This document shows, in pieces, positions 1 through 41,270 of a stretch of DNA of 41,365 nt. The position numbers were made by a program, and so were the translations under genes. A model generated the notes under the pieces. That model saw nothing but the letters and a program-made list of their open reading frames with translations. It had not been told where the DNA came from and made no database searches. The stretch spans positions 1-41,365 of the IMG/VR virus record IMGVR_UViG_3300033434_000010; one strand, 5' to 3'. Source of the DNA: a virus (lineage: Duplodnaviria; Caudoviricetes). Each line of letters begins with the position of its first letter. The first letter of the stretch is position 1.

Positions 1-127
1 AAATACCGGATTGCAGTAGGCAAAAGTAAAACTCCGACACCGATTGGCGAGTGGAATGTGGTATGGAAAGACTATGATTGGGGAACCGGATTTGGAACAC
101 GCTGGATGGGGCTAAATGTGCCTTGGG
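1..127 (+). pseudogene. Host L,D-transpeptidase (YkuD family), upstream part, interrupted by the prophage
   Basis: Frame 1 reads KYRIAVGKSKTPTPIGEWNVVWKDYDWGTGFGTRWMGLNVPW, typical of a YkuD N-terminal half. It continues in frame at 41248. ORF 58..261 is this frame reading through into phage DNA. Confidence 0.9.
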
Positions 128-149
128 CTAGGCCCTGTGGCAGACTACA
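100..149 (+). other. Left attachment junction (host half + phage half); core TGGG 124-127
   Basis: Host LDT coding sequence stops after TGG(W) 124-126. The phage arm contains AGACTACA (142-149), the reverse complement of TGTAGTCT at the right junction. Confidence 0.85.
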
Positions 150-227
150 GAAAGATGACCTCCTGCCGCTAATAAACTTGACAGCAGTAATAGGACATGC
201 TAAGGTAGACCTAAGTGAATTTACCTC

Positions 228-527
228 AAAAATTTCTGAGGGGTCTAGTTCAATCTTCTAAAATGAGAAGTTCCCCCCGTAGGGTTCTCCTCTATATAGT
301 TGAGAGTCCTTCTCATTCTCTGTGATTCTCACTTTCAATTAGCCTTGAAATATACCAATGATTACCAAAAGAATAGGCCGAGATAACATAAACGATATTA
401 TCGGACATAGTATGGGAATAACTGTAAGATGGACATGAGGTTATCAATAGGTAGCTTGAGGTCTGTCTTATCGCGGTACTAGGAAACTAAAGTAGTGTTA
501 GGGTTTCTATATTTGTCATCATCTGTT
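228..527 (+). repeat. Putative single copy of the phage terminal-repeat / concatemer-junction region
   Basis: AAAAATTTCTGAG (228-240) followed by AAGTTCCCCCCGTAGGG (268-284) resembles the sequence around the start of the T7 terminal repeat as I recall it. ATCTGTT (521-527) matches the T7 class II pause/terminator at the concatemer junction. The region is non-coding. Confidence 0.5.
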
Positions 528-696
528 TTGATTCATGACCAGGTACTAATATCAGATACTAAGACCAGCCCTTAAGTTCTCCTCCTCCAGGTAATACTCC
601 AAGTATATCTAATGTAGTAGCAACAGCAGCAGGGAGCGTAGAGGATTACTAGTAGAACCCTAAAGGAGAATGATTATCTATAAGGAGGCTCTAGGA

Positions 697-1182
697 GTGT
701 ATAAAAGGCTAATACTATTGATAGTACTTGCGGTGTCCTTAGGTATTTCTCCAGGGCAAGCTGAGGGTGATTCCTATAATCGCCTTGAGAAGCTTACAGA
801 GGATTCTAAGGTGATTATTTACTTAGAAAATGACACACTATCTTCTAATCTTAGTGAGAGTAGTGACCACATACCTAGTGTCTATAAGGCAGGTGCTTGG
901 TTGTGTTTTACACCTAAAGATAATTCTACAGAAGAACTCCGGGTTTACTACAGGTGGGAAATTACACCATCAACAGAACAAGCCAAGGCTAAAAGGATTG
1001 CCTCTCTCCGCTATAAAGATGGGGTGTTTATATCAGGAAGTGGGGAGCAGGACTGGCAGGAGATACTTAAAGGCACTAATGGATATGACCTTGCTAATCG
1101 AGTATTCTCTATAAGTGTCTTAGAATGGGATTTATATAACTACATGCTGACAGGTAAATCTAAACTGAACGTAGTAAAATAA
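697..1182 (+). CDS. Exported protein with signal peptide (moron; possible superinfection exclusion)
   Basis: AAGGAGG SD before GTG 697 (the track start at 670 also has an SD). N-terminus MYKRLILLIVLAVSLGISPGQA looks like a Sec signal. Followed by a terminator. Confidence 0.7.
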   Translation: MYKRLILLIVLAVSLGISPGQAEGDSYNRLEKLTEDSKVIIYLENDTLSSNLSESSDHIPSVYKAGAWLCFTPKDNSTEELRVYYRWEITPSTEQAKAKRIASLRYKDGVFISGSGEQDWQEILKGTNGYDLANRVFSISVLEWDLYNYMLTGKSKLNVVK

Positions 1183-1189
1183 TATAAAC

Positions 1190-1244
1190 AAATAAAGGCC
1201 ACCTTGAGGAACCCTATTAGAAGGTCTCAAGGTGGCCTTTATTT
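1190..1244. terminator. Bidirectional intrinsic terminator
   Basis: AAATAAAGGCCACCTTGAG...CTCAAGGTGGCCTTTATTT perfect inverted repeat between convergent genes. Confidence 0.9.
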
Positions 1245-1250
1245 ATATTT

Positions 1251-1556
1251 CTAGCGATCATCCTTGGGAGTAGACCGCTGGAGGAGACTGTCACCGTGTA
1301 GCCGTTTCTTATCAATTAGTCGCCTCATAGCTAAATATTGGGTGTCTGCTTGAATTTCCTCAATGTCACCTTGAAGCTGTCCTAAGACGCTGTGAGTAAA
1401 CTTAATGTCCGTTCTTAGCTCCGTGAAATTCTGTTGAGTACTTTGCTTAAAGTCCAGGAAATTTGCCTTGATATATTTGACTTCAGCTTTTATATCTTTA
1501 ATTTCCTTAAGGATAGTCTGGAGTAATTCTATTTCACTACTAGCCATATCCATCAC
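1251..1556 (-). CDS. Hypothetical coiled-coil protein
   Basis: 101-aa ORF with heptad pattern and a GAGGAG SD on the minus strand (1558-1563). Ends at the bidirectional terminator. Confidence 0.7.
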   Translation of the reverse strand: MMDMASSEIELLQTILKEIKDIKAEVKYIKANFLDFKQSTQQNFTELRTDIKFTHSVLGQLQGDIEEIQADTQYLAMRRLIDKKRLHGDSLLQRSTPKDDR

Positions 1557-1592
1557 ACTCCTCTATAATATTATACCTTATGTTGAGTCTTG

Positions 1593-1884: not shown

Positions 1885-1913
1885 ATCATATCAAATAAAA
1901 TTGCAGTTGTCTA
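1885..1913 (-). promoter_or_regulatory. Sigma-A/70 promoter for the repressor (TAGACA-17-TATGAT)
   Basis: Minus strand -35 at 1908-1913 and -10 at 1885-1890, 17-bp spacer. Confidence 0.7.
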
Positions 1914-1986
1914 CAGTTAAAAGTTGTTGACAACAGTGTTTGACAGTGATAATATGTAATTAACAGCTAATCACTGTAGGTAACAG
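1904..1986. promoter_or_regulatory. Five operator-like repeats NNGT-N5-ACAG
   Basis: ACAG at 1913, 1933, 1943, 1963, 1983. The best copy is the palindrome CTGT-AGGTA-ACAG (1974-1986). The repeats overlap both promoters. Confidence 0.6.
1927..1955 (+). promoter_or_regulatory. Sigma-A/70 early lytic promoter (TTGACA-17-TAATAT)
   Basis: Consensus -35 at 1927-1932 and TAATAT at 1950-1955, upstream of the rightward early operon. Confidence 0.75.
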
Positions 1987-2107
1987 CTAAAATCTAACCC
2001 ACTAAAGATGATTTTATTCCCTGAATTTCCAGCTCTCATGTTAACAGAGAAATTTGATGGTCAAGGTAAGTCATACTTTGGGTTTATTTAAAAGGAGGTC
2101 TTGAAGG

Positions 2108-2455: not shown

Positions 2456-2974
2456 ATGACTATTAAAATTGCATTGACAAACCTAGGGAAATACAACGAG
2501 GGCAACCTCATCTACAAATGGGTAGAGCTTCCGGCTACTGAGGAGGAACTCAAGGCTGCAATGGATGCTATAGGGATTAATGAAGAGTATGAGGAGTTCT
2601 TTATCACTGATTCTGAGACTGATATAGAAGGGCTTAAGATTGGCGAATATGAGAACCTGGACAATCTTAATGAATTAGCTGAAGAGCTTGAGAACCTCAC
2701 AGATGACGAACTAGAAATAGTGTCTGCAATCCTGGAAGTACCTCTTCATATGACCTAGAGGGGGGCTCTAGAGCTCCTCAGGGAGGGTGACTACAGCTAT
2801 TATTCAGACATCACTGATGAAACTGAACTAGGTGAATATGTAGTTGAGGAAGGTCTCTTTGGTGAAGTTCCTGAGAATCTCCGTAACTATCTAGATTATG
2901 AAGCCATAGGGAGTGATTGGAGAATAAACGCTGGAGGGTCCTTCACTTCTAAAGGTTACATAGAGTTTCACTGA
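2456..2974 (+). pseudogene. ardA: Antirestriction protein ArdA with internal TAG at 2756-2758
   Basis: MTIKIALTNLGKYNEGNLIYKWVELP...EEFFITD at the N-terminus. After the TAG the same frame continues ...ELGEYVVEEGLFGEVPENLRNYLDYEAIGSDW...FTSKGYIEFH*, a typical ArdA C-terminus. Strongly acidic. Confidence 0.85.
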
Positions 2975-2976
2975 TA

Positions 2977-3054
2977 TGTCGAAACCTCTAGATTCTTTTG
3001 CAGGGTCTGGAGGTCTACCGAGGGATAGCCGCCCGGTACTGATGAGACAGGCTA
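2977..3054 (+). ncRNA. Type II hammerhead ribozyme (HH1)
   Basis: TGTC-GAAA-stem III(ACCTCTAGA/TCTGGAGGT)-C3015 cleavage site (GUC)-stem I(TACCG/CGGTA)-CTGATGA-GACA. Loop TAGCC pairs with 3' tail GGCTA (pseudoknot). Confidence 0.9.
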
Positions 3055-3076
3055 AAGATAAAGGAGAGATGATAAC

Positions 3077-3466
3077 ATGTATGATTTTGACACTAGGCAT
3101 AAGGTAGCTAGTGGTACTGCCAATCCAACCCATTTCTGGTCAGGTAACTGTCAGGAAATCCGTGAGGAACTCCTCCGACAAGCTGTAAAGTCCTGTGATA
3201 TGTATGCTACCGATATTCTTATCCTTTTAGAACGTAGTAGCGGAACTATGGAGGCTTTCCTAAAGGTTGATGGTCATGCCCATATTGAGATTTACTTTAT
3301 GAGAAGTGGTTGCGCATGGGCTTTGAAAACTCATGAAGGTCTAATAGGTAATGTTGGCAGCTTACCTTTTCAATATCGTGCAGCTATGGTGTTAACTAAA
3401 GAGCCTCATCCTGAGTTTTCTGATGAGTATAACTTTGCACTCTACAGCCTTTCAGGTACTGTGTGA
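3077..3466 (+). CDS. Hypothetical early protein flanked by two ribozymes
   Basis: AAGGAG SD, 129 aa. Confidence 0.8.
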   Translation: MYDFDTRHKVASGTANPTHFWSGNCQEIREELLRQAVKSCDMYATDILILLERSSGTMEAFLKVDGHAHIEIYFMRSGCAWALKTHEGLIGNVGSLPFQYRAAMVLTKEPHPEFSDEYNFALYSLSGTV

Positions 3467-3542
3467 GTCGAAACCTAAGGAGCCCTTCAAGGCTCCTGAT
3501 GGTCTTCCGGAGATAGCCTCCCGGAACCGATGAGACAGGCTA
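3467..3542 (+). ncRNA. Type II hammerhead ribozyme (HH2, variant core CCGAUGA)
   Basis: GTC-GAAA-stem III(ACC..GGAGCC/GGCTCC..GGT)-C3504-stem I(TTCCGG/CCGGAA)-CCGATGA-GAC. Loop TAGCCT pairs with tail AGGCTA. Stems differ from HH1 while pairing is preserved. Confidence 0.85.
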
Positions 3543-3720
3543 ACTAGTCGAGCAAGCTTAGGTCAACCTAAATTTGAGCTGACTTGAGCTAACTTGAAGG
3601 TCAACCTATGCTAAGTCAGCTTTTGGCCTCTTTGGTTTTTCCTGCTAGACTACAAACAGATGTTCCCTTACAACTAAATAGGGACAGGCCAATGTGTAGA
3701 TTAAATCAAAAGGGAGATGC

Positions 3721-3988: not shown

Positions 3989-6622
3989 ATGGAAAAATAT
4001 ATCAGATTATACGGAAAAGAACTCTTTGACGAGGAACTCAAACTGGAAGACTATTATAGGGAACTAGCCCAAGACTCCTTACAGACCACTATTGATAAAG
4101 CTGTAGCAAATTCTCAAGTTGAGTCCACACAAGTAGGTAAAAAGTTAGTAAGCTATGGTCTGGAGGATGCAAGGAAGGCAGTAGAAATCTGGTATGAAGA
4201 CCTTAAGAAGCCTAAAAGAGGCGTAAAGCCAACCTATAGTATAATCATTTTGGACATGCTGAAGATATTCCAGAAGAGTTGTAAGAGTCTTGATGACCCA
4301 CAAGAGGAAGCCCTGCAGAAGGCTGAGAGAGAATCTGAATTAATTGACCTCATAACCTATATAACCTTAGCTACTATAATAAACACCATAGGGAGACCTG
4401 ATGGAATACCCTGCAATAATGTTGCTCATATAGTAGCAAAGGAGCTGCAGGAGGAATTGAAGGTAGAAGCCTTTATCAATACATTACCTAAGCATACCCT
4501 AAAGGGGCTCCTTGAAGGTATTAAGACTAGAGGAGACAAGCACTACAAGACCTATTATGCACGTCAAGCAATGGTGAAGCAAGGCTTTGAGTGGTCTAAA
4601 TGGAACAAGAAAGACATGCTGATACTGGCTAGGCAGCTAATACAACTAGTTGTTGAGGGCTCAGGGTATTTTGAAATAGTTCTCCCACATACAGAGAAGG
4701 GAGATGGACAGGACATCATACAGCCAACTGACTGGCTCCTTAAGGCATGGACCTCAAACACTGACAAGCTCCTCAATAGGGTCTTTCACAACTGCCCTAT
4801 GGTTATACCTCCACTTCCCTGGACTTCCTTAAAGAATGGAGGTTACTATGGAGCCCTCCACGGTAGACATACATTGTTGAGGTCAGAGTCCCTCCGAGGT
4901 AGTGACCAGTCAGTATTTACCAAAGAGTATCTTGAGCGTATGGAAGAGGCTGACATCTCAGAGGTAAAGGAAGCTATAAACATTATTCAACAGACTCCCT
5001 GGAGGATTAATAAGGAAGTGTTTAGGGTACTAGAAGCAATCCTTGAGGCTGGTGGGGATATCGCAGAGGTTCCAAGCCTGAGGGAGCTCCCACAGACACC
5101 AAACCTCCCAGAAGGATACACAGAGGAGGAGCTCAAGAGACATAAAAAGAGGAAATGGGAGACATACAAAAAGGAGGTCACACGCAGATCAGTGGCCTCA
5201 AGGTGCTTAAGTCATTTCAAGTTAGCTCAAAATTATCTGAAATATGAAAGAATTTATTTCCCTTACAATATGGATTTCAGAGGTAGAGTCTATCCTATAT
5301 CTAGCTTCAGCCCTCAAAGTGATGATGTAAACAAGGGGCTCCTGGAGTTTGCTGATGCTCCCCCCTGCAATACTATGGATGACATTAAAATGTTAATGAT
5401 ACATGGTGCAAATGTGGCAGGAGTGGACAAGGTTTCCTTTAAAGAGAGGCAGCAATGGGTCTTAGATCACGAAGAGCAAATCCTCAGGAGTGCTGCAGAC
5501 CCTCTAGGTTACCGTTGGTGGGCTGAGCAGGATGATTCTAGCTTCCAGCTTCTAGCCTTCTGCTTTGAGTGGTCAAGATGGAAAGACTACTATGCGACCT
5601 ATAAGACAGCTAAAGGCTTTGCCTGCAATATTCCTGTGGCGTTTGATGGAACCTGTTCGGGCCTTCAGCATTATTCAGCACTTCTCAGAGACTCCATAGG
5701 TGGTACTGCTGTTAATTTAGTACCTGGAGAGGCTCCAAATGACATCTATGGTGTAGTGGCAAAAGGTGTCATTAAGCTGCTAGAGAAAGACCTGGAGAAG
5801 GGTACAGGGGACGAACAGACACAATATGAGGATAGGAGTATAATGAAGTTTGGAACGCGCTCACTCGCTCAACAATGGTTAACCTATGGGGTAACGCGCA
5901 AGGTTACTAAAAGAAGTGTTATGACCCTCCCCTACGGCTCTAAAGAGTTTGGCTTTAAACAACAACTATTAGAAGATGTCATAAAACCAGCCCAAAAGGA
6001 AGGCAGAGGCGACATGTTTATTTCTCCTACGCAGTCTGCTCAGTATATGGCAAAGAAGATTTGGCAGGTAGTTCAGAAGGTAGTAGTTAAGGCCATGGAG
6101 GGCATGAAGTACCTGCAAGAGGTCTCCCGCAAGGTCTGCGGAGAAGGTAGAATAATTACTTGGGTCACACCTATGGGACTCCCTATACAGCAGGCATATA
6201 TGGTATATAGTGCTGAAAAAATTCAACCTCGGCTGTCTAATGGTTGCCGTAAATGGATATACACTCAGACACCTACAGGTAATATAGATAAGCATGCTCA
6301 AGTTAATGGTATTGCTCCTAACTTTATTCATAGCCTTGATGCTTCACATTTGCAGTTAACAGTACTCAATAGCCGTAAAGGAGGAATAAAGCATTTTGCA
6401 TTAATACATGATAGTTTCGGATGCCCTGCAAGTCAAGCAGCTACCCTTTTTAAGACAGTTAGAGAGTCTTTTATTCAGCTATACACGCAGTATAATCCCT
6501 TAGAGACCTTTACACAGAACTTAGCTATGTACTTAGAATACCCTGAAGACCTCCCTGATATACCCAAAAAGGGAAATTTAGACTTGAATATCCTTAGAGA
6601 ATCCCTTTATATGTTTGCTTAA
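3989..6622 (+). CDS. T7-like single-subunit DNA-directed RNA polymerase (gp1)
   Basis: 877 aa; DFRGRVY, FDGTCSGLQH (motif A), RKVTKRSVMTLPYGS (motif B), IHDSFG (motif C), C-terminal YMFA. Confidence 0.98.
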   Translation: MEKYIRLYGKELFDEELKLEDYYRELAQDSLQTTIDKAVANSQVESTQVGKKLVSYGLEDARKAVEIWYEDLKKPKRGVKPTYSIIILDMLKIFQKSCKSLDDPQEEALQKAERESELIDLITYITLATIINTIGRPDGIPCNNVAHIVAKELQEELKVEAFINTLPKHTLKGLLEGIKTRGDKHYKTYYARQAMVKQGFEWSKWNKKDMLILARQLIQLVVEGSGYFEIVLPHTEKGDGQDIIQPTDWLLKAWTSNTDKLLNRVFHNCPMVIPPLPWTSLKNGGYYGALHGRHTLLRSESLRGSDQSVFTKEYLERMEEADISEVKEAINIIQQTPWRINKEVFRVLEAILEAGGDIAEVPSLRELPQTPNLPEGYTEEELKRHKKRKWETYKKEVTRRSVASRCLSHFKLAQNYLKYERIYFPYNMDFRGRVYPISSFSPQSDDVNKGLLEFADAPPCNTMDDIKMLMIHGANVAGVDKVSFKERQQWVLDHEEQILRSAADPLGYRWWAEQDDSSFQLLAFCFEWSRWKDYYATYKTAKGFACNIPVAFDGTCSGLQHYSALLRDSIGGTAVNLVPGEAPNDIYGVVAKGVIKLLEKDLEKGTGDEQTQYEDRSIMKFGTRSLAQQWLTYGVTRKVTKRSVMTLPYGSKEFGFKQQLLEDVIKPAQKEGRGDMFISPTQSAQYMAKKIWQVVQKVVVKAMEGMKYLQEVSRKVCGEGRIITWVTPMGLPIQQAYMVYSAEKIQPRLSNGCRKWIYTQTPTGNIDKHAQVNGIAPNFIHSLDASHLQLTVLNSRKGGIKHFALIHDSFGCPASQAATLFKTVRESFIQLYTQYNPLETFTQNLAMYLEYPEDLPDIPKKGNLDLNILRESLYMFA

Positions 6623-6625
6623 ATT

Positions 6626-6644
6626 TAATTGGCACACATATTGA
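6626..6644 (+). promoter_or_regulatory. Phage RNAP promoter 1 (TAATTGGCACACATATTGA)
   Basis: Intergenic repeat directly after the RNAP gene, the position of T7 phi1.1A; same motif found 6 times, all on +. Confidence 0.85.
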
Positions 6645-6658
6645 ATAGAAATTAACAA

Positions 6659-6700
6659 GGAACACCTTAAGATATTGCTTTGATATCCTTAAGGTGTTCC
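6659..6700 (+). other. Long hairpin, putative RNase III processing site
   Basis: GGAACACCTTAAG...CTTAAGGTGTTCC inverted repeat without a U tract, between promoters 1 and 2. Confidence 0.55.
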
Positions 6701-6710
6701 TGTCTATTTC

Positions 6711-6729
6711 TAATTGGCACACATATTGA
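6711..6729 (+). promoter_or_regulatory. Phage RNAP promoter 2
   Basis: Exact copy of TAATTGGCACACATATTGA. Confidence 0.85.
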
Positions 6730-6803
6730 ACTAAAGAAGGTGATTATCAAACAACCTTAATTGATACTAAGAATCACTATCAATAACTAAAGGAGATGAA
6801 TGA

Positions 6804-7250
6804 ATGTCAACAACTAACAAAAAAGCAGACAAGAGCCTTAAAGAGGAGTTGCTTAAGGAGCCCTCTTTAATCAAAGTTGAACCCTCCGAAAAAGCTGAGG
6901 AAAACGAAAAGGCTCCAGAGGTTGCAGAGACTCCTGAAGCACCTGCAGGAAAGAAGACTCAAGTTATTCCTATTAATATGCCCTCAAATCTGCTGATGGG
7001 GTCTAGCCGATTAGCTCATAAGGCTTATAAGGTAGAGACCAAAGTGATTGTAGATATCCCTGAGGGCTCTGTGGGTCTGATACTCTTGAGTCCTAAGCTG
7101 GCAGAACTGACAAGGGTACGTTTAGTTAATCCTACAGTTCTTATCCCTGAGGACTCTGATGAGCCCCTTGTGCTAATCTTTGAGAACCTTGGGATTGACC
7201 CTTATATGCTCAAAGAGGGTACAGAGGTAGCAAGATGCGTTATCCTCTAG
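6804..7250 (+). CDS. Degenerate dUTPase-fold protein with acidic N-terminal extension
   Basis: C-terminal half (VDIPEGSVGLIL...LVLIFENLG..PYMLKEGTEVARCVIL) follows the trimeric dUTPase pattern but lacks the RSG, IDxDY and motif V signatures. Confidence 0.6.
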   Translation: MSTTNKKADKSLKEELLKEPSLIKVEPSEKAEENEKAPEVAETPEAPAGKKTQVIPINMPSNLLMGSSRLAHKAYKVETKVIVDIPEGSVGLILLSPKLAELTRVRLVNPTVLIPEDSDEPLVLIFENLGIDPYMLKEGTEVARCVIL

Positions 7251-7786
7251 TCATTAACCTATTTGGTGGTGCTGGTTGTGGTAAGAGTACTACAAGGGCT
7301 GGCTTATTCTACCTAATGAAGACTGCAGGTATTTCCTGCGAGGAAGCTCCGGAATGGATAAAAGGAGAGGTTTACTCAAAGAATCCTTATCCTACCCAAG
7401 ATCAGCTTTGGGTCTTCGCTAATCAATTCAAGACTCTCAACCAGATTGGAAAGCAGCAGAAGGTAATTGTTACTGATAGTCCTCTGCTACTATCCGTTAT
7501 TTATAATCCCCGTCCATGGTCTGATAGGGAGCTTAACCATTTAATACTGGCGCGTTTTAAAAAGTTCAGGAACCTTAACATATTTATCAAAAGGGTTAAG
7601 CCTTACAACCCTGTAGGTCGCTACCAGAATGAAGAGGAAGCTAAAGAGAAAGATGAGGATATTCTTAAGCTCTTAGACCTTTATGAAATACCTTATGATA
7701 TCGTACCAGGAGATGAAAAGGCTCCTGGTATTATTTTGTCTAAAATCAAAGCAATCTTAGAAAAGGAGACTAATAACATTGGCTAA
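7235..7786 (+). CDS. P-loop nucleotide kinase / NadR-like AAA protein
   Basis: Walker A GGAGCGKST, IVTDSPLL, GRYQ motifs. Confidence 0.8.
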   Translation: MRYPLVINLFGGAGCGKSTTRAGLFYLMKTAGISCEEAPEWIKGEVYSKNPYPTQDQLWVFANQFKTLNQIGKQQKVIVTDSPLLLSVIYNPRPWSDRELNHLILARFKKFRNLNIFIKRVKPYNPVGRYQNEEEAKEKDEDILKLLDLYEIPYDIVPGDEKAPGIILSKIKAILEKETNNIG

Positions 7787-8438
7787 ACAGAAATTCAAAC
7801 AAATCACAACTCCTGCAGGTATTATCTTATGGGCTCACACCAAGAAAGAGGAAGAGTGGAAAGGAGTGCCTACAGGGAAATTCTCATGTCAAATCAAGTT
7901 TCGGACACCTGAGGAAACTGCAGCATTCCAAAGTATGCTTGAGCAGGAATTTGAGCATTTACGAAAGGAGATGCCTGAGTACTTCAAAGACCTTAAACCT
8001 AAAAGAGGGTCTTTACCTACCTTTGGTGAGAAGGAAGACCAAAATGGAGACATTAGCTTTAAGGCTACCACTAAGTCAACCTATAAAAGTAACAAGACAG
8101 GTGAGGTCTTTAATAAAGTAGTTCCTGTGTTTGATGTTAAAGGAAAGCCTTTAGATGCTGTTATTGGTAATGGCTCTATTGGTAAATTAGCAATCTCGCT
8201 GGCTCCTAAATTTAAAGACAACTCCTGTTATGGTATCAACTTATGGCTGGATGCTATTCAAGTTATGGACCTTCAGGAATATTCTGCAGGAGGCGCTCAA
8301 GAAGCTAATGCTTTTGGCTTTGGTCAAGAGGAGGGTTCTTGTGTTGCTGAGGATATGCAGGAGGCTGAGGTTAATCCCTTTACAAATGAAGAGGAGCAGC
8401 CTGTAGAAGCTGAAGCTGCGGGTGTAAAAGATTTTTAG
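7779..8438 (+). CDS. Single-stranded DNA-binding protein (gp2.5-like)
   Basis: TTPAG, IGNGS.GK, L.AIQV..L.EY motifs; acidic tail ending in Phe; synteny. Confidence 0.9.
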   Translation: MAKQKFKQITTPAGIILWAHTKKEEEWKGVPTGKFSCQIKFRTPEETAAFQSMLEQEFEHLRKEMPEYFKDLKPKRGSLPTFGEKEDQNGDISFKATTKSTYKSNKTGEVFNKVVPVFDVKGKPLDAVIGNGSIGKLAISLAPKFKDNSCYGINLWLDAIQVMDLQEYSAGGAQEANAFGFGQEEGSCVAEDMQEAEVNPFTNEEEQPVEAEAAGVKDF

Positions 8439-8460
8439 GGTGAATTGAGCTTGATATTTA

Positions 8461-8934
8461 TTGAAGAGGGCATTTAATCGTAAGGGTGGGTGGCATACTG
8501 TTGTTGCTGATGACTTCAGGTCTGGACTTGAGGTCAAGATTGCAAAACAGTTGGAGGATGCTGGAATACCTTATAGGTATGAGAAGGACACCATAAGATA
8601 TATTATTCCAGCTACCAAGCATATCTATAACCCTGATTTTGTATTGCCTAATGGAATCATTGTAGAAGGTAAGGGTATCTTTGATGTTGATGATCGCAAG
8701 AAGCATTTATACATTAAAGAGCAGTATCCTCACCTAGATATCCGGTTTGTTTTTAGTAACCCACAGACCAAGATCAACAAGGGTTCTAAGACAACCTATG
8801 CTATGTGGTGTCAGAAGCATGACTTTAAGTTTGCTGCTAAGTTAATTCCTGTGGAGTGGCTTAAAGAGGCAGCTAAAGACACTGAAGGGCTTAAACCAAA
8901 GGAGACCAAGAAGGAAAGAAAGCGTGAAGTTTAG
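8461..8934 (+). CDS. Endonuclease I / Holliday junction resolvase (gp3)
   Basis: FRSGLE, Y.PDFVLPNGIIVEGKG, DRKKHL, LDIRFVFSN motifs. Confidence 0.95.
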   Translation: MKRAFNRKGGWHTVVADDFRSGLEVKIAKQLEDAGIPYRYEKDTIRYIIPATKHIYNPDFVLPNGIIVEGKGIFDVDDRKKHLYIKEQYPHLDIRFVFSNPQTKINKGSKTTYAMWCQKHDFKFAAKLIPVEWLKEAAKDTEGLKPKETKKERKREV

Positions 8935-9259: not shown

Positions 9260-9262
9260 CAG

Positions 9263-11894: not shown

Positions 11895-11896
11895 GT

Positions 11897-13840: not shown

Positions 13841-13854
13841 GGATTAAATAAGGA

Positions 13855-14541: not shown

Positions 14542-14675
14542 GAGAAAATCCTTGTGTAACCTGTAGGCTCCGTAAAGAGGGTTGTCCGGTGATTCACTGT
14601 AGGCTCCATAAATGTGAGTTTATTCAGGCATGCTTATTGTGTAATTGTAGGAGCCTTAAGGAGTTCTTAAGCTAA
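14538..14675 (+). CDS. Small Cys-rich protein (45 aa, 8 Cys)
   Basis: ATGA overlap with the methyltransferase stop; MRENPCVTCRLRKEGCPVIHCRLHKCEFIQACLLCNCRSLKEFLS. Confidence 0.5.
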   Translation: MRENPCVTCRLRKEGCPVIHCRLHKCEFIQACLLCNCRSLKEFLS

Positions 14676-29046: not shown

Positions 29047-29063
29047 GAAAAGGAGCGAATTAA

Positions 29064-33542: not shown

Positions 33543-33545
33543 TAA

Positions 33546-35003
33546 TTGGCAACAGCTTCATATAAGACTATCAAGACACTCACAGCCACAGCAGGCCAGA
33601 GTGTCTTTAATTTTGCCTTAGATTATTTAAGGAAGCCTTTTATACAAATGAGTATTAATGGTGTATCAAAAACCTATAGTACTGACTATTCAATCTCAGG
33701 CCAGGAGTTAACATATCCTACAGGGTGTGCTACAGGGGATATTGTTGTTATTAAACGTACTACCTCTACAGATCGTATAGTAACTTGGAATGATGCTTCA
33801 GTACTGCGCGCTTCAGACCTTACAGTATTTGAGACACAACTCCTTCACATTCAGGAGGAGCTCTCAGATGCAGTCCAAACAGATGCAGCGGATGAGGCTC
33901 TTAAGGCTGCTACTAGTGCTGCTGAGGCGGCTGCCCTTCTCGCTTCTATGCAGGCCACTTTAGACGCTGCTACTTTAGCCGCTACCCTAGAAGCCACTAA
34001 CCAAGCTGCTACTGCTACCACAAAAGCTCTTGAGGCTGCTACTAGTGCTCTTGAGGCTGCTGCTAACGCTGAGACTGCTGCCTCTGTAGTTAATACCAGT
34101 TTTCGCAATAAAATAATTAATGGTAACTTTGATATATGGCAAAGAGGCACTAGCCAAACAAATTCGGGTTATGGGAGTGCGGATAGATGGCATTGCACTA
34201 ATACAGGAACCACTAAAAATGTTTCGATACAATCATTCCAATTTGGTCAAACAGAAGTTCCCAATAATCCTAAATATTTTATGAGACATGTAGTAACGAG
34301 TGTTACAGGGACAGGTAACTTTTGTATATTACAACAAAAAATTGAAGATGTTACTTTGTTATCAGGGAAAACAGTAACAGTGTCCTTCTACGCAAGAGCA
34401 GCTAGTGCTAAGAATATAGCTGTTGATTTTTACCAGAATTTTGGTACTAGTGGGAGTACAGGAGTTACGAATATTGGTATTACATCAATAGCCTTAACTA
34501 CAACGTGGAAAAAGTATATTCTTACAATTACTTTGCCGTCTGTTTCAGGTATGACCATAGGTGCAAATAGTTATACTGACTTACGTTTCTGGTTTGACTG
34601 TGGGAGTGTATTCGATAGTAATATAAATGCTCTTATTGGGCAGCAGTCAGGAACATTTGATATCGCTCAAGTCCAACTAGAAGAGGGTAGTGTAGCAACT
34701 AATTTTGAACAGAGACCAATAGGAATTGAATGGTCTTTGTGCTATAGATATTATGAATATGGTAATGCAGTAATTGAATGTTATGGAGCAGCTTCCCAAT
34801 CTCTATCAATGACACCTTATTTCAAAGTTATAAAGCGAGCTGTTCCCACTATTGTTGTTACTGATAACAGCTCTGTATATACCACAGGAGTTTTTTCTGC
34901 TTTAGAACTTGATACTAGAAGCTTCAGACTAAAAGGAACTAAAGACACAAACGCAGGGGCTTTTATCATAAGGGCTCTATGGTATGCAGATGCAGAATTA
35001 TAA
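33546..35003 (+). CDS. Tail fibre (gp17-like)
   Basis: T7 fibre adaptor (F....DYL....V, I.R.T, S.LRA.DL...Q.LHI.EE), Ala-rich coiled coil, C-terminal carbohydrate-binding-like domain (NKIINGNFDIWQRG...VQLE.G..AT.FE.RP). Confidence 0.9.
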   Translation: MATASYKTIKTLTATAGQSVFNFALDYLRKPFIQMSINGVSKTYSTDYSISGQELTYPTGCATGDIVVIKRTTSTDRIVTWNDASVLRASDLTVFETQLLHIQEELSDAVQTDAADEALKAATSAAEAAALLASMQATLDAATLAATLEATNQAATATTKALEAATSALEAAANAETAASVVNTSFRNKIINGNFDIWQRGTSQTNSGYGSADRWHCTNTGTTKNVSIQSFQFGQTEVPNNPKYFMRHVVTSVTGTGNFCILQQKIEDVTLLSGKTVTVSFYARAASAKNIAVDFYQNFGTSGSTGVTNIGITSIALTTTWKKYILTITLPSVSGMTIGANSYTDLRFWFDCGSVFDSNINALIGQQSGTFDIAQVQLEEGSVATNFEQRPIGIEWSLCYRYYEYGNAVIECYGAASQSLSMTPYFKVIKRAVPTIVVTDNSSVYTTGVFSALELDTRSFRLKGTKDTNAGAFIIRALWYADAEL

Positions 35004-35015: not shown

Positions 35016-35207
35016 ATGGAAACTAACGAAGTACGTAACGAACTCCTCAAGACCTCTCCAGTAGTTGCTACAAATACTATAACCTACTTTGGAGCCCCCT
35101 TAAGTGACTGGATGTATGGGGTCTCTATTATTTATGTAATAATGCAAATTACTTGGTTGGGTGTTAAGATGTGGAATCACTTTCAACGGAGAAAGGAGGG
35201 AGGCTAA
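35016..35207 (+). CDS. Holin (gp17.5-like)
   Basis: 63 aa, hydrophobic helix, basic tail, follows the tail fibre. Confidence 0.8.
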   Translation: METNEVRNELLKTSPVVATNTITYFGAPLSDWMYGVSIIYVIMQITWLGVKMWNHFQRRKEGG

Positions 35208-35440
35208 TGGCGTTCCTCAAGAAAGCTATAAGAGACCTAACAGCCACTCTTTATGATGACCAGGAGTATAAGGTCATATCATTACCTAGAGTGGTTTTTG
35301 CTATTTCAGTGGGTTGTGTTATTGTTGCTTGGATTACAGATCAATTCTTAGGATTTAAATATAGTAACATGAGTCAACTCACTCAATGGTCGATGGCTAA
35401 TGCTGCTGCTTATGCTGCTAAGAAATATTGTGAAAAATAA
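35207..35440 (+). CDS. Small membrane protein (second holin/antiholin candidate)
   Basis: TAATG coupling with the holin, GGAGG SD, one clear and one possible TM helix. Confidence 0.65.
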   Translation: MAFLKKAIRDLTATLYDDQEYKVISLPRVVFAISVGCVIVAWITDQFLGFKYSNMSQLTQWSMANAAAYAAKKYCEK

Positions 35441-35458
35441 GAGGAGGTCCTAAAACAT

Positions 35459-36055
35459 ATGAGTAATGAAGAACTAGCTAATAAGATAGCTCAAGGTATC
35501 GTTGAGTCTGGTGTTGAGGGAGGTACTGATAATGTTTGCTGCTCAACTGCAGGAGACTATCCGTGTATGGGTGTGAGTTCCTGGGAGGGCATTGGTGGTA
35601 GAGGAGACAACCTACTCAGCTATCTGGATGGTGGTCAGAAGTTCATAGGAAGATCATACACAGATATTGTAGAGAGTGATGAGAAGGAAGAACTCGCCAC
35701 TCTTTTAGATTCTCCTCAAGGACAGGCGGCACAGCGAATGATTCTCGCAGGGGATTGCTTAGAGAAATATGTACCAGCCCTTGAAGAGGTTCCTGAGCTA
35801 ACTAATATTCAGTGTATTGTCTATGCTGGTATGTGGTGTCCTACAAGTCACTATGTAGTCAAGCGGTTCCTAACAAGGAGATCACAGATGCAGGATGACA
35901 ATGGTAATCAGATGTATAACCTTAACAACCTAGAGACCCTCCGAGACCTCTTTAGGGAGCAGTATGCTATCGCTGCAGATATTCCTGAGAATTGTTATGA
36001 GGGCTACGCTAATCGCGCTGATGTTACCTATGAGTGGGTAGTCAATAACGTCTAA
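35459..36055 (+). CDS. Hypothetical protein, candidate endolysin
   Basis: Acidic 198-aa protein in the lysis block; N-terminal E.G...D...+G+.SW arrangement reminiscent of lysozyme-like folds. Function inferred from position. Confidence 0.5.
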   Translation: MSNEELANKIAQGIVESGVEGGTDNVCCSTAGDYPCMGVSSWEGIGGRGDNLLSYLDGGQKFIGRSYTDIVESDEKEELATLLDSPQGQAAQRMILAGDCLEKYVPALEEVPELTNIQCIVYAGMWCPTSHYVVKRFLTRRSQMQDDNGNQMYNLNNLETLRDLFREQYAIAADIPENCYEGYANRADVTYEWVVNNV

Positions 36056-36104: not shown

Positions 36105-36329
36105 TTGGTAAGAATCAAACAGGAACTACTTGACAAACTTGCAGAGATGGAAGTAGACGCTCTTCTGGAGGGTCTTGAGGATGAGGAACTAAAGCGTAAC
36201 CCTGCGTTTCTTGAGAAGGTTCGCAAGTTCCTCTCTCAGAATAAACTGGATACTCAACCTGAGACTCCAGGTATTCCTAGGTTAATACGCAAGGTCGAAG
36301 AGATACCAGACTTTGACAAGATTCAGTAG
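36105..36329 (+). CDS. Terminase small subunit (gp18)
   Basis: L..L.D.E.R.P.......KFL..N pattern; synteny. Confidence 0.8.
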   Translation: MVRIKQELLDKLAEMEVDALLEGLEDEELKRNPAFLEKVRKFLSQNKLDTQPETPGIPRLIRKVEEIPDFDKIQ

Positions 36330-36343
36330 AAAGGAGACTAAAG

Positions 36344-36550
36344 ATGTCTAACCCAGTAATTGAGAATAACTTTATGTATCACACACTTAAGGAAGGACAG
36401 CTCAATAAGTATGAACAAATTAGAAGTATAGCTAAAAAGCTGACTTATGAGATTGATGATACCTGTCCTGCCTCACGAGAGAAAGCCTTAGCTATGACTA
36501 AACTTGAAGAAGCTGTAATGTGGGCGAATGCTTCAATAGCCCGAAACTAG
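36344..36550 (+). CDS. Acb2/Tad1-like helical hairpin protein (candidate signal-molecule sponge)
   Basis: SREKALAMTKLEEAVMWAN motif. Confidence 0.65.
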   Translation: MSNPVIENNFMYHTLKEGQLNKYEQIRSIAKKLTYEIDDTCPASREKALAMTKLEEAVMWANASIARN

Positions 36551-36570
36551 CGGAGAATTGAGGTACTTAA

Positions 36571-38319
36571 TTGTACCCTTGGAGTAATGAACAAATAGAA
36601 AGAGCCAAAGATGACTTCAGGGTGTTTCTGTGGGTAGTGTGGAGGGCTATAAGCCTTCCTAACCCTACAGAGATACAAATAGCAATGGCATATGATGTAG
36701 CTAACCCTCCCTCAGATCGTATGATTCTTGAAGGGTTTCGAGGAGTAGCTAAGTCCTTTATAACGTGTGCCTATTGTGTCTGGGAGCTTTGGCGTAACCC
36801 TATATTAAAAATTGAGGTAGTCTCTGCTAATAAAGAGAAGGCAGACCTCAATGCAGCCTTTATCAAAAAGATCATTAATATTATGCCTTTCCTGGAGTGC
36901 CTTAAGTTAACCGCTGACGATAGAGTAGCAGGGATGAGAGACACCAATAATCTCTTTGATGTCCATGGAGCAAAACCTGATATTAGTCCTTCAGTTAAGT
37001 CTGTAGGTATCACAGGACAGCTCACCGGGAGCCGTGCAGACATCCTAGTATCTGATGACGTGGAAGTACCGAGTAACTCTGCTACACAACTTCAGAGGGA
37101 CCGCCTTGGGGAACTCGTTAAAGAGTATGATGCTATCCTAAAGCCTGGAGGCCGTATCATCTACTTAGGGACTCCTCAATGTGAGGCCAGTTTGTATGTA
37201 GAGCTTGGCAATCGTGGTTATGAAACTATCATCTACCCTGTAGAGTATCCTAGTAGTGCTGATGAGAGGGCCTTCTACGGGAGTCGCTTAGGTAAGCTTC
37301 TAGCAGACCGCTATGATGTTGAACCTGAGAAGTGGGCAGGCAAGCCTACAGACCCTGCACGTTTCAATGAGGAAGAGATCGAAAAGAGAAAGCTCTCCTA
37401 TGGTCGGGCCGGGTTTGCTCTTCAGTTTATGCTTAACACTAACCTTAGTGATGCTGATAAATTTCCTCTTAAGGTGGCAGACCTCATTGTAGCTGCTCTT
37501 GATCGAGAAGAGACGAGTATTAAGTGGGCTTGGGCTAGTGGTCAACAGCAGAGGATTGCAGACATACCCTGTACTGCCCTTAAAGGTGACTTCTTCTACA
37601 TGCCTTTTGAGAGGTCCAAGGAGTGCCTGAAGTATAAGGGTACTATGATGTTTATAGACCCAAGCGGAAGAGGTTCTGATGAGACAGCCTATGCTATTAC
37701 ACGCTTCTTAAATGGTTATATATTTTTGGTAGAAGTTGGAGGTTATCGAGACGGTTATTCTGATGAAACCCTTAAGGCACTAGCAAACAAGGCTAAGTTC
37801 TGGGGAGTCAATAGTGTACGTATTGAGCCTAACTTTGGTGATGGTATGTTTACTAAGCTAATAACTCCTGTATTCATTGAAATCCACCCTTGTGATGTCC
37901 AAGAGTCCAAGTCAGCTAAAGGCCAGAAGGAAGCCCGTATCATCGATATCTTAGAGCCTGTCCTCAGTAGACATAAATTAATTGTAGAACCCTCAGTCCT
38001 TCAGGCTGATTTTGAGGTCTATATGAAAGACTTCAAGTATTCCCTTATCTACCAGATGACACGCTTATGCAAAGATAAAGGAGCCCTAGCTCATGATGAC
38101 CGGATAGAAGCAGTAGCTAATGCTGTATTGTTCTGGCTTGAGTCTATGGCTATGGATGCTGACATGGGTGCTGAAGAACTACTTGAGGAAGAACTGGAGA
38201 AGTGGCTAGACCCTGATAGAGGTGTCTTGTATATTGAAGAACCTATCAAGACCCTGAAGAAAGGTTCACTGGGAATGGACACTATATTAGCTAATATCCT
38301 TGATACATTCTGGAAGTAA
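36571..38319 (+). CDS. Terminase large subunit (gp19)
   Basis: FRGVAKS, SVGITGQLTGSRAD, DDVE, LGTPQ, IDPSGRG.DET, HDDR motifs. Confidence 0.98.
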   Translation: MYPWSNEQIERAKDDFRVFLWVVWRAISLPNPTEIQIAMAYDVANPPSDRMILEGFRGVAKSFITCAYCVWELWRNPILKIEVVSANKEKADLNAAFIKKIINIMPFLECLKLTADDRVAGMRDTNNLFDVHGAKPDISPSVKSVGITGQLTGSRADILVSDDVEVPSNSATQLQRDRLGELVKEYDAILKPGGRIIYLGTPQCEASLYVELGNRGYETIIYPVEYPSSADERAFYGSRLGKLLADRYDVEPEKWAGKPTDPARFNEEEIEKRKLSYGRAGFALQFMLNTNLSDADKFPLKVADLIVAALDREETSIKWAWASGQQQRIADIPCTALKGDFFYMPFERSKECLKYKGTMMFIDPSGRGSDETAYAITRFLNGYIFLVEVGGYRDGYSDETLKALANKAKFWGVNSVRIEPNFGDGMFTKLITPVFIEIHPCDVQESKSAKGQKEARIIDILEPVLSRHKLIVEPSVLQADFEVYMKDFKYSLIYQMTRLCKDKGALAHDDRIEAVANAVLFWLESMAMDADMGAEELLEEELEKWLDPDRGVLYIEEPIKTLKKGSLGMDTILANILDTFWK

Positions 38320-38569: not shown

Positions 38570-39127
38570 ATGAATATATCTAAAAGTCTAATCATTAAGG
38601 TATCCCTAGGGCTAATCATTAGTATCCTCCTAGGCTCCTGGATATACCTTAGAGTCCTAAAGGAGAATGATTCTCCATTACCTCAGGAGACCTCAAAGAC
38701 CCTTCAGGACACCTCACTGGTCCCTCAGGTATACCCACTAACCACAACTGTTACTGCTACCACTAAGACCACTCCTACAGACCCTGATGTGGTCCTAAAG
38801 CAGACCTACACGGCTGAGGTTAATGGTAAGACAGTTACAGTTCCTATTAAGGAGGTCCCTGGAGTGTCAAGTAAGAATGGTTCTCCACAAGGAGTCATTA
38901 CACAACAAATAGATGTTACTCCAGTAATCCAGCAGGCTCTTAAGGCTTCCCAAAAGAATTGGGAGGTCTCAACTGGCTTAGGTGTCCATGAAGGTGACTT
39001 TTACATCCCTGTGGGTCTTCAAAGGAACCTTTCCCACAACCAAGCTATTGCTATTGAAATCCATTTAGACCCTCAAGATAAACTCAATGTAACTGGTGGG
39101 GAGGTTAAGAAAGTATGGAAGTTTTAG
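38570..39127 (+). CDS. Membrane-anchored protein with beta-rich C-terminus ending WKF
   Basis: N-terminal TM helix, Thr/Pro-rich linker, amphipathic beta strands. Confidence 0.75.
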   Translation: MNISKSLIIKVSLGLIISILLGSWIYLRVLKENDSPLPQETSKTLQDTSLVPQVYPLTTTVTATTKTTPTDPDVVLKQTYTAEVNGKTVTVPIKEVPGVSSKNGSPQGVITQQIDVTPVIQQALKASQKNWEVSTGLGVHEGDFYIPVGLQRNLSHNQAIAIEIHLDPQDKLNVTGGEVKKVWKF

Positions 39128-39177
39128 GCGTGATGTGTCTTACAATTATTAGTTAACGGGAGCCTGAGGTGGTCCTC

Positions 39178-39321
39178 TTGCTAATCTACCTTCTGTCTAT
39201 CATGGTACACCTGGAGGATTGCCTCACAGCTCTATTGATTTTCCGGTGTCACCTTCTACCTGGAGACCTCTTCGGGCTGAGGGTATACATCAAGACAATA
39301 AAATATTTCCTTCCTAATTAA
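39178..39321 (+). CDS. Possible small hydrophobic protein (47 aa)
   Basis: GAGGTGG SD before TTG; followed by a hairpin at 39323-39347. Confidence 0.3.
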   Translation: MLIYLLSIMVHLEDCLTALLIFRCHLLPGDLFGLRVYIKTIKYFLPN

Positions 39322-39393
39322 TGGCCTCATATAGTTGTGAGGTCTTTCAGTTTGTCCCTAAGCATATATAAATAGCAAAGAGGTGGTTCAGTT

Positions 39394-39522
39394 ATGCTGA
39401 AAGTCCCACAGGTAATAGCCCATTACAATGAAGATGGAAAGACGTACCAGGAGAGCCTTAAAGAGCTCCTTAAGCTCATCATCATCAAGGATATCAGCAA
39501 AGAAGTATCTGTAGCTGATTAA
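39394..39522 (+). CDS. Small protein (42 aa) upstream of the integrase; candidate recombination directionality factor
   Basis: GAGGTGG SD; MLKVPQVIAHYNEDGKTYQESLKELLKLIIIKDISKEVSVAD. Function inferred from position only. Confidence 0.55.
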   Translation: MLKVPQVIAHYNEDGKTYQESLKELLKLIIIKDISKEVSVAD

Positions 39523-39528
39523 CATTTG

Positions 39529-39557
39529 TTTACAACTGCCTACTACTAGACTACAAT
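39529..39557 (+). promoter_or_regulatory. Sigma-A promoter for the integrase (TTTACA-17-TACAAT)
   Basis: 5/6 and 5/6 consensus matches with 17-bp spacer, ~60 bp upstream of ATG 39618. Confidence 0.7.
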
Positions 39558-39617
39558 AAGATTAGCGGTAGGTGGTTGTCTTTCAAATTAATCAAAGAGA
39601 GCAGAAGGAGGATAAGC

Positions 39618-41213
39618 ATGTTTGCTCTATTGAAAGATAACAACCAACAAAAATCTTCCATTGTATATAATGTAGGTCTTTACTTAAGATTATCACGTGA
39701 AGATGGGGACTCATCAGAGTCTACGAGTATAACTAATCAGAGGGACTTTCTCACAAGGTATGTATTAGAGCAAGGATGGAACCTTGTAGATGTCTTTATT
39801 GATGATGGCTTTTCTGGCACTAACTTTAATCGTCCGGACTTCCAAAGACTCCTTAAGGCTGTTGAGAGTCGGCAGATTAACCTTGTAATAACTAAAGACC
39901 TCTCCAGACTTGGGCGGGATTATATTGACACAGGTTATTATGTCGAAAAGTATTTCCCTAGCCAAAATATTAGGTATATTGCCTTAAATGATGGTGTAGA
40001 CACATTTGACACTAACAACAGCAATAATGATATGAGCCCTTTTAAGTCCGTAATGAATGACTTCTACGCTAGGGATATCTCAAAGAAAGTCAGAACAACC
40101 ATGAATATCAAGCGGAAGAATGGTCAGTTTATTGGTTCCTTTGCTCCTTATGGCTACCTCAAGTCCCCACTGGATAAGAACAAGCTTATAGTAGACCCTC
40201 AAGCTGCTCCAGTAGTAAAAAGGATATTTGAGATGTACCTAGATGGTGCTGGCTACAGACACATATCTCACACTCTAAACAGTGAAAAAGTGGCATGTCC
40301 GAGTGTCCATAAGGCAGCTCAGTATGATAAGTATAGAAATGCTAAGGCTACCTCAGGATTATGGACATCAGAGGCCATTAAAGTAATTCTCCTTAATCCT
40401 ACTTATGCAGGTAACTTGGCACAACACAAATATACTATGGTTAGCTATAAGGTAAAGAAGCTTAAGGCAACTTCTAGGGACTCCTGGCTTATAGTGTATG
40501 GAACCCATGAGCCTATAGTCGACCCAAGTACCTTTGAGGTAGCTCAACAGATTATGACAGCAAAGGCTCCTATGCTTAAGGTAGGTACAAGGAAAGTCCA
40601 TCTCCTGGGTGGTCTGTTGTATTGTAAAGACTGTGGAGCACGAATGACCTTTACTAAGACACAAAAGGGGATATGGTATTGTATCTGCTCCAGTAACAAA
40701 AACTTCAAAAGGTGCTCAAGACACTCATATATTGAGGCAGAACTTGAAGACTACATTGTAGATGACCTCAGGAGAATCGCTAAGGCTGCTGTGGTAGATC
40801 GGAGTGAACTTATCCAGATAGCCCAAGAGGAAACTGGAGAAAAGGTCAAGACAACAGCGACTAGGATATCCAAGGAAATCTCCACAATAGAGAAGCGGCT
40901 GGATGAGATAAAGAGGATAATCAAGGCACTCTATGAGGATAAATTAAAAGGGATTCTCACAGAGCAGGACTTCATAGACCTCTCAAGGGAGTATAGTAGC
41001 GAAAGGGAGTCCTTGTCTTCTAGGTTGTCTAAACTCTCAGGAAGCCCCCAGATAGAACAGGATGCTTCAAATGAAGACTTCATGCACTATGTATTAGACC
41101 TCCTTGAAGTTAATAAGTTAACGCGAGTACTAATAAGTAAGTTGATAAGCCGTGTAGAAATAACCGAGGATAAAACCATAGAAATCTATTATAATTTTAA
41201 GAACCCTCTTTGA
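39618..41213 (+). CDS. Large serine recombinase (integrase)
   Basis: YLRLS catalytic Ser, [27 protein letters not shown], Zn ribbon CKDCG...C...C, coiled coil. AAGGAGG SD favours ATG 39618. Confidence 0.97.
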
Positions 41214-41220
41214 TATTCCT

Positions 41221-41270
41221 TGTAGTCTCCCATCAGGTGTAGGGTGGGGAACTTACGGTATACATGGGAC
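41221..41270 (+). other. Right attachment junction (phage half + host half); core TGGG 41245-41248
   Basis: TGTAGTCT arm starts 8 bp after the integrase stop; the host frame resumes at TGG GGA ACT TAC. Confidence 0.85.

Follow-up and report, generated by a model that had tools for sequence, protein, structure and literature searches.

A T7-like prophage with a large serine integrase lies in an L,D-transpeptidase gene of a probable Sporomusa-like host and may act as a gene-intervening element

Introduction

Temperate T7-like phages are established. Gram-positive bacteria are reported to carry T7-like prophages too, if "to a lesser extent" (PMC10134795, citing Boeckman 2022), and T7-type tail genes are mentioned in passing for a prophage of Megasphaera hexanoica (bioRxiv 2026.02.16.706137; PMC7693777). 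ProddE (MZ666938), Pasto (MT708545), LUZ100 and the pelagiphages combine the T7 gene order with an RNA polymerase (RNAP), a repressor and ArdA, and on the circular map carry the integrase gene between terL and the RNAP gene. Here we describe a prophage of the same build in IMGVR_UViG_3300033434_000010, a record of 41,365 nt that we refer to as a whole as the window. Whereas ProddE, Pasto and their kin have tyrosine integrases and Desulfovibrio or proteobacterial hosts, the window has a serine integrase and a Negativicute host, and it has only 12 of 46 proteins and about 0.6% of its DNA in common with ProddE. The initial annotation of the window regarded T7-like phages as classically those of Proteobacteria and Cyanobacteria, a view to be corrected by the reported prophages of Gram-positive phyla. 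Its remark that temperate members mostly use tyrosine integrases holds for ProddE, Pasto and most of the Negativicute clade described below, but not for the serine-integrase prophages or phages at L070, G056 and L266 (L and G numbers are our labels for loci and genomes).

The integration site resembles that of a second group of elements. SPbeta in spsM, skin in sigK and gin in gerE each split a gene precisely and in frame, carry a serine integrase at the edge next to the 3' fragment, and are described as having a small factor under a mother-cell promoter (PMC4191935, PMC5595907, PMC5025042, bioRxiv 2022.02.25.481979); split sigK genes are also on record in Negativicutes. The window shares the precise split and the position of the integrase, and differs in its T7-like podovirus chassis, diderm host and L,D-transpeptidase target; its developmental excision is putative. 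The term "L,D-transpeptidase" is absent from the main texts that we searched on gene-intervening elements. Among the papers that our literature searches listed, none dealt with a T7-like phage with a serine integrase, with this clade or with an element in this gene, although the tables of Boeckman 2022 may hold Negativicute or serine-integrase cases; nor did we find sporulation-timed excision described for any T7-type phage. What appears new here is not the temperate T7-like prophage but the link of a serine integrase and a putative sporulation gene on a T7 chassis. Such a link would join two subjects so far kept apart, T7-type phages, a model of obligate lysis, and the sporulation-timed gene rearrangement of Bacillus and Clostridium.

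The prophage splits a host gene in frame

We regard it as virtually certain that the window holds a T7-like prophage within an L,D-transpeptidase gene. The window begins and ends with the two halves of a single YkuD L,D-transpeptidase gene (127 bases at the start, 121 at the end), which share a TGGG and read in frame across it; they are identical to five intact genes at 109-117 of 127 and 98-109 of 121 nt, respectively. The halves rejoin at exactly the prophage boundaries and att cores proposed initially (Table 1). The gene is broken at a Trp codon, upstream of the catalytic His/Cys motif, whose Cys is at about residue 142 of 239, and the split leaves the N-terminal half cut off from this motif and from the peptidoglycan-binding domain. 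What sets gene-intervening elements apart, an insertion into coding sequence that can be restored in frame, is thus found here.

The recombination machinery is that of a large serine integrase, as first annotated: Resolvase, Recombinase and zinc-ribbon domains with the catalytic Ser, a weak DUF4368 match, and a short palindromic attP with a central dinucleotide. The phage-side att arms are palindromic about TG at 16 of 26 pairs, compared with 4-7 at six neighbouring offsets, and they include a perfect run of 8 bp, which only 17 of the 41,121 positions of the circle reach. The TG within the Trp codon is the most likely point of crossover. By eye, the same palindrome centre is present in G056 and L266. 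G056 is a cultured genome with a second full T7-like prophage at the same codon (RNAP 48%, integrase 58%, DNA similarity about 16%), and so provides a test case. L266 has terS, terL and integrase followed by an attP; because this attP is unrecombined, L266 is the free form of a relative.

With flanks of only about 120 bp on each side, the window could in principle have been misassembled from host DNA, a Bacillota island and a lytic T7-like phage. We consider this very improbable: the same architecture recurs at the same codon in G056; 3 contigs were found for each of RNAP, integrase and attL read-through protein, the longest of 58-82 kb; the attP symmetry spans both ends; and GC content is even along the window. 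At L349:5729-8243 the target gene has a 3D-domain cell-wall gene on either side, and G056 and G074 share this order.

Table 1. Features of the window, in order of position
Feature	Position	Strand	Evidence or content
5' part of host L,D-transpeptidase gene, up to attL	1..127	+	YkuD + PG_binding_1
attL core	124..127	+	TGGG
Secreted-looking accessory gene	670..1182	+	no match in family scans or fetched loci
Coiled-coil ORF, downstream of repressor-like gene	1251..1556	-	no homologue in fetched loci
Repressor-like ORF, 67 aa	1650..1853	-	putative helix-turn-helix; homologues in L119, L122, L344
Candidate lysis-lysogeny switch	1885..1995	.	divergent sigma-70-type promoters and short repeats; consensus matches only
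ardA antirestriction gene	2456..2973	+	in-frame stop at codon 101
Type II hammerhead, between early genes	2977..3056	+	RF02276, 41.8 bits (cut-off 37)
Second, weaker type II hammerhead, core variant	3466..3544	+	29.8 bits, E 0.0018, under cut-off
Single-subunit RNAP	3989..6622	+	catalytic motifs present; phrog_414 E 8e-238; PF00940
Candidate phage promoter, two copies	6625..6736	+	further copies at 14672, 22008, 38321, 38348
T7 class II block	6804..19583	+	kinases, single-stranded DNA-binding protein (SSB), endonuclease I, gp3.5 homologue, primase/helicase, DNA polymerase, FkbM methyltransferase, Tad2-like, ligase, gp5.9, exonuclease
Short T7-lysozyme (gp3.5) homologue	8924..9259	+	alignment to 1aro_L, E 5e-5; zinc-binding parts missing
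Virion block	19580..35003	+	portal, scaffold, capsid, tail tube, nozzle, gp14-16, fibre
Lysis genes	35016..36055	+	holin, second small membrane protein, candidate endolysin 35459-36055
Packaging region	36105..38319	+	terS, Acb2/Tad1-like anti-defence gene, terL
Candidate lipoprotein-free spanin	38570..39127	+	N-terminal membrane helix; C-terminal helix and four beta strands, end W-x-F
Candidate recombination directionality factor, 42 aa	39394..39522	+	before integrase; sigma-E-like site at about 39307-39335
Large serine integrase, 531 aa	39618..41213	+	Resolvase, Recombinase, zinc-ribbon domains; catalytic Ser
attR core	41245..41248	+	TGGG
3' part of host L,D-transpeptidase gene	41245..41365	+	catalytic His + Cys motif; PF03734 E 5.5e-13

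The host is very probably Sporomusa-like

The peptide of the left flank matches named Sporomusa L,D-transpeptidases at 93-98% and ten further rows at 100%. One intact protein, P0244, matches both flank peptides without a difference and agrees at 118 of 120 residues over the N-terminal half, where named Sporomusa species reach at most 89 of 120 and other genera 54-58. Because P0244 is so much nearer to the flanks than named Sporomusa or other genera, a Sporomusa-like species is likely, and we hold a Sporomusa-like host to be very probable. The nearest named RNAPs come from Anaeroselena (56%) and Anaeromusa (48%), and the nearest named integrase (60%) from a Sporomusaceae bacterium. By these matches the prophage likely sits in a Sporomusa chromosome, that of a two-membraned, spore-forming Firmicute, as anticipated by the initial proposal of a Bacillota host, most plausibly a diderm Negativicute. 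A proteobacterial origin of the flanks was considered as well; they match Sporomusa proteins at 98-100% instead. ArdA, which had been taken as a further sign of a Bacillota host, is no such sign, as ProddE and Pasto carry it too and the gene is broken here. A monoderm host was rejected: the rows L036 and L045 carry a Bacillota label but lie outside the clade, beside deltaproteobacterial and Melainabacteria rows, and may be misbinned.

Sporomusa species are acetogens with few genetic tools. The prophage offers a candidate RNAP-promoter pair for them, and an integrase with a conserved landing site.

The split gene is probably transcribed in the mother cell

Orthologues of the target (E at most 1e-60) occur in 71 of 401 Negativicute genomes and the mother-cell sigma factor (sigma-E model) in 70 of the 401; both are present in 67 and neither in 327. 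Upstream of 15 of 27 target orthologues we identified a spoIID-type promoter pattern, against 0.2 expected from resampled sequence, and a -10 box precedes 25 of the 27, 10 of them with a variant -35. The pattern was taken from spoIID, where it is found in 5 of 5 genomes. We conclude that the target L,D-transpeptidase is probably a sigma-E gene, which would put a name to one such gene of diderm spore-formers; that the att site falls within a probable sporulation gene had escaped the initial annotation. Since the split gene is likely switched on at spore formation, the phage would need to excise then if the gene is to be restored.

A small ORF may encode the excision factor

A small open reading frame (ORF) of 33-42 aa lies before the integrase gene in all four elements compared, including a non-phage island in G078, and integrases further removed have weak homologues in front of them (E 0.03 to 5). 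In the window, a sigma-E-like site 66 nt upstream of this ORF ranks 2nd among about 82,000 phage positions; the corresponding site is also good in G078 but weak in G056 and L266. SPbeta sprB and C. difficile CD1234 are described as small factors under mother-cell promoters, and sprB as having a perfect -10 box, an imperfect -35 and lytic expression through read-through. By analogy, the sprB picture is compatible with the case for the small ORF. ORFs 670 and 1251 were rejected as directionality factors, the other elements having no homologues of them.

From the observed starting point of an integrase, a palindromic attP and an in-frame split of the transpeptidase, the element could work as follows. 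In growth, the small repressor, acting at the divergent host promoters, would keep the early operon, and hence the phage RNAP, off. The 42-aa ORF would encode the directionality factor; it sits where sister phages with tyrosine integrases keep an excisionase-like gene. Upon lytic induction, the phage RNAP, starting at the two promoters that follow terL, would transcribe it. In sporulation, the sigma-E-type promoter would drive it alone, and the prophage would excise without the lytic cascade. We therefore favour, at a probability of about 0.55, an SPbeta-like gene-intervening element on a T7 chassis, silent in growth and excising in sporulation to restore its target; sporulation-timed excision as such we rate as slightly better than an even chance.

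A number of observations weigh against this reading. Four target carriers have no sigma match and three sigma carriers no target, and the co-occurrence of the two is confounded by kinship, being mostly that of one lineage. The strict promoter pattern is found upstream of only 1 of 5 spoIVA, 0 of 5 spoIIIAA and 0 of 4 spoIIID genes; as most of these regions are missed, the pattern is specific but not sensitive. The small ORF had no match in the family scan. Its sigma-E-like site scores 12.0, below the lowest training site (13.1), and the corresponding sites score 10.3 in G078 and 4.3 and 4.0 in G056 and L266; 17 of the 22 sites on which the matrix was trained are the target gene's own promoters. 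TnpX-type integrases, with which the window integrase shares its weak DUF4368 match, are not known to need a directionality factor. In addition, ardA is broken by an in-frame stop, and spore-formers carry several target paralogues, so that the loss of one may cost nothing.

This last point also speaks for a plain temperate phage of the T7 type that lands safely in a conserved transpeptidase gene its host can spare and excises only on lytic induction, its lysogen going without the enzyme. Conserved coding sequence is a common target of serine integrases, and the sigma-E-like site before the small ORF is weak in 2 of the 4 elements. Such a phage would not, however, readily account for a target that is nearly confined to spore-formers and has a sigma-E-type promoter, for the convergence of two unrelated integrase families on this gene, or for the single case of G038, a non-sporulating-looking genome (no sigma-E match, no target orthologue) that carries the tyrosine version. 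We consider a safe landing site possible but not probable.

Integrases have been exchanged and converge on one gene

Most members of the clade use tyrosine integrases. These are Pfam-confirmed upstream of the RNAP gene in G134, G038, G001 and G155, and a tyrosine-integrase probe matches L001-L005, L013 and L018. The serine module instead follows terL in the window, G056 and L266. Serine and tyrosine types interleave in the terL tree (100/100 groups), and an approximately unbiased (AU) test on 20 rows rejects the window and G056 as one RNAP clade (p 5e-6); judged from these trees, the three serine members acquired their module on more than one occasion. The slot that the window and L266 use for the small ORF and their serine integrase is filled in L122 by a tyrosine integrase and an excisionase-like ORF, and in all three this slot follows the same 50-aa gene. 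The latter is a hydrophobic ORF of no known family, 51-67% identical among the three (window 39169-39321, L266:3903-4061, L122:4506-4667), and could encode a small membrane toxin or lysis helper.

The idea that a serine integrase is unique to the Negativicute clade was rejected, as a T7-like prophage at L070 (Gemmatimonadaceae) has a full large serine integrase directly upstream of its RNAP (L070:7327-11977); the pairing of serine integrase and T7-type RNAP is therefore rare, not unique. Small serine resolvases lie upstream of T7-type RNAPs in two deltaproteobacterial genomes (L054:6568-7269, L066:8521-9237). When metagenome and viral contigs were scanned with integrase profiles, L266 was the only close one among the matches listed, which were mostly distant.

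Among 120 listed homologues of the target, 8 end right after NVPW. One is the read-through of this phage, and the other 7 all have an attP-derived [ED][YH] at the same offset. For three of these, the longest contig equals in length that of a close integrase homologue, a pairing confirmed in G056. By this signature, the same integrase family strikes the same codon repeatedly. G078 has an island of about 10 kb in a transpeptidase paralogue (L383:8392-19029, G078:C1), with IS66, a resolvase and a cytosine methylase, an integrase of the same family and the small ORF. The serine module may be a mobile cassette acquired by several Sporomusaceae phages and islands. G074 carries an unrelated 43-kb prophage in the same transpeptidase gene (L342:3880-5400 to L344:7195, G074:C6). 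Its serine integrase is unrelated and has inserted it a few codons downstream of the NVPW site, and gene sizes and starts suggest a contractile-tail type.

The window belongs to a Negativicute clade sister to T7

A profile scan of 185,579 species genomes yielded 78 RNAP loci that were kept, 11 of them from Negativicutes, with 9 of these in the top 10. Such an RNAP is found in 14 of the 401 sampled Negativicute genomes, 5 of which were already in the species-genome scan. A single-protein RNAP query had no match in viral contigs; an alignment query did. In a tree of 81 RNAP rows, which leaves out most IMG/VR rows and two Veillonella rows whose RNAPs are frameshifted, a 35-row clade with full support in the Shimodaira-Hasegawa-like approximate likelihood ratio test (SH-aLRT 100) unites the window with all 9 named Negativicute rows and contains no named row from other groups. 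This clade is sister to T7, phi15 and gammaproteobacterial prophages (SH-aLRT 99), with Ralstonia phage RsoP1EGY outside. A 23-row tree agrees (100/100 and 98/96), and its AU test rejects grouping with ProddE, Mucispirillum and Melainabacteria rows (p 0.002). The phylogeny thus bears out the T7-like status proposed for the window, and together with the single-subunit RNAP and T7 core genes in T7 order on one strand it places the phage in Autographivirales, the T7 supergroup. The left-out Veillonella prophages at L006 and L008 (G004, G225) are T7-like with a broken RNAP reading frame.

Membership in a described genus was also considered. Among the matches listed from 50,697 deposited phage records, compared at the protein level, none is close: RNAP reaches at most 36.5%, terL 59% and the integrase 37.5%. 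T7 and the Studiervirinae have the same structural and replication genes, yet the RNAP of the window is only 36% identical to that of T7. The window further differs from T7 in being temperate, in having a gp3.5 without catalytic parts and hammerheads between early genes, and in that no lipobox o-spanin was found in its late region.

The simplest reading of the RNAP tree, that of one gene with an unsure root, is a jump of the T7 lineage from Proteobacteria to Negativicutes. More tentatively, and as less likely than not, we envisage that this lineage crossed once from Proteobacteria into diderm Firmicutes, diversified in Negativicutes, swapped its lipoprotein spanin for one anchored by a beta-barrel and, in spore-formers, acquired an integrase cassette timed by the host; the result would be a developmental switch that vacates a cell-wall gene of the mother cell during sporulation and travels on in the spore. 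Negativicute prophages have been concluded not to be acquired from Proteobacteria (bioRxiv 606087), in a main text with no match for T7-like, Podoviridae or RNA polymerase. The T7-like clade would be a counterexample.

Gene content argues against a decaying prophage

The 41.1-kb prophage contains a T7-type genome in T7 order on one strand (128-41244), as claimed initially. Among the 46 ORFs scanned for families, the order is RNAP, SSB, endonuclease I, gp3.5 homologue, primase/helicase, DNA polymerase, ligase, gp5.9, exonuclease, portal, scaffold, capsid, tail tube, nozzle, three ejection proteins, fibre, holin, terS and terL, followed by the integrase. The 761-aa gp15, which had no match in the family scan, was assigned by its position and by 33-40% matches in relatives. 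The stop in ardA and the short gp3.5 would suit a decaying prophage whose module may still excise, as that of skin does, but which no longer makes particles. All replication and virion genes are, however, full-length compared with three relatives, the RNAP and polymerase motifs are present, and gp3.5 is equally short in relatives, making decay improbable. The earlier statement that core genes are intact accordingly stands for these genes, with ardA as the exception. Besides the broken ArdA, the anti-defence set comprises Tad2-like, gp5.9 and Acb2/Tad1-like proteins.

A 27-nt motif is present in six copies, all on the + strand and none on the - strand, after the RNAP gene, in the middle block, in the late block and twice after terL; from this distribution, it is likely the promoter of the phage RNAP. 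The repressor-like gene noted at first is real, and L119 and L122 have homologues of it in the corresponding position, but its assignment as a repressor is weakly supported: it has no Pfam or NCBIfam match over threshold, and the repressor region contains 7 sigma-70-type sites against 9.5 expected. The conserved ORF after the RNAP gene (6804-7250) has a weak dUTPase-like match (E 0.007). An FkbM-type methyltransferase gene directly follows the DNA polymerase gene (13855-14541) and was not found in the fetched relatives.

Lysis genes include a candidate lipoprotein-free spanin

The candidate endolysin resembles endolysin domains by its predicted fold (template modelling score 0.66, under our bar for naming), and a PF21277 muramidase occupies the same place in G134 and G056. 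The gp3.5 homologue, judged by the zinc-ligand positions of T7 lysozyme, is without catalytic parts and likely serves only as an RNAP inhibitor.

Spanins of the T1 gp11 type have an N-terminal outer-membrane lipoprotein signal and a C-terminal membrane helix. ORF 38570, which has neither, is a candidate for a spanin of another kind. It follows terL in relatives (18 ORFs, some duplicates; 213 representatives) and has two phage promoters upstream. An N-terminal helix is found in 63 of 64 full-length homologues, a lipobox-like motif in 6 of 64, and C-terminal strands with an aromatic residue within the last two positions in 62 of 71. The structural model (predicted local distance difference score 75, predicted template modelling score 0.36) combines a membrane helix at the N terminus with four strands at the C-terminal end. 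A fold search of the PDB with this model gave no clear match (best Z 5.6), YadA-anchor look-alikes were weak (E 0.04 or worse; under our bar), and no lipobox ORF was found within 33500-39600. Negativicutes are described as having neither LolA nor LolB (PMC5007114). We propose, from the model, that ORF 38570 is a candidate barrel-anchored spanin. Like T1 gp11 (Kongari 2018, PMC6139136), it is a late gene whose single chain is predicted to touch both membranes, but its topology is the reverse, it has no lipobox and it ends in a beta module; "barrel" has no match in the main text of that study.

Type II hammerheads occur in the early region of some clade members

We rejected the hammerhead ribozymes of the early region as a new element, since a type II hammerhead beside ardA in an integrase-bearing prophage, the arrangement seen here, was published among clustered phage hammerheads in 2011 (Perreault 2011, PMC3088659). 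The window adds a new example only, together with a count across the clade. Sense-strand hits to a type II descriptor upstream of the RNAP gene occur in 16 of 59 clade loci (some redundant) and in 0 of 74 other loci; in clade loci they are never antisense and never downstream of the RNAP gene. The descriptor misses the second copy of the window as well as other hammerhead types. Of eight related loci that were scanned, three have a type II hammerhead. Copies between early genes lie at L175:10418-10498, L181:10166-10245 and L184:1617-1694, and a genome may hold up to three hammerheads.

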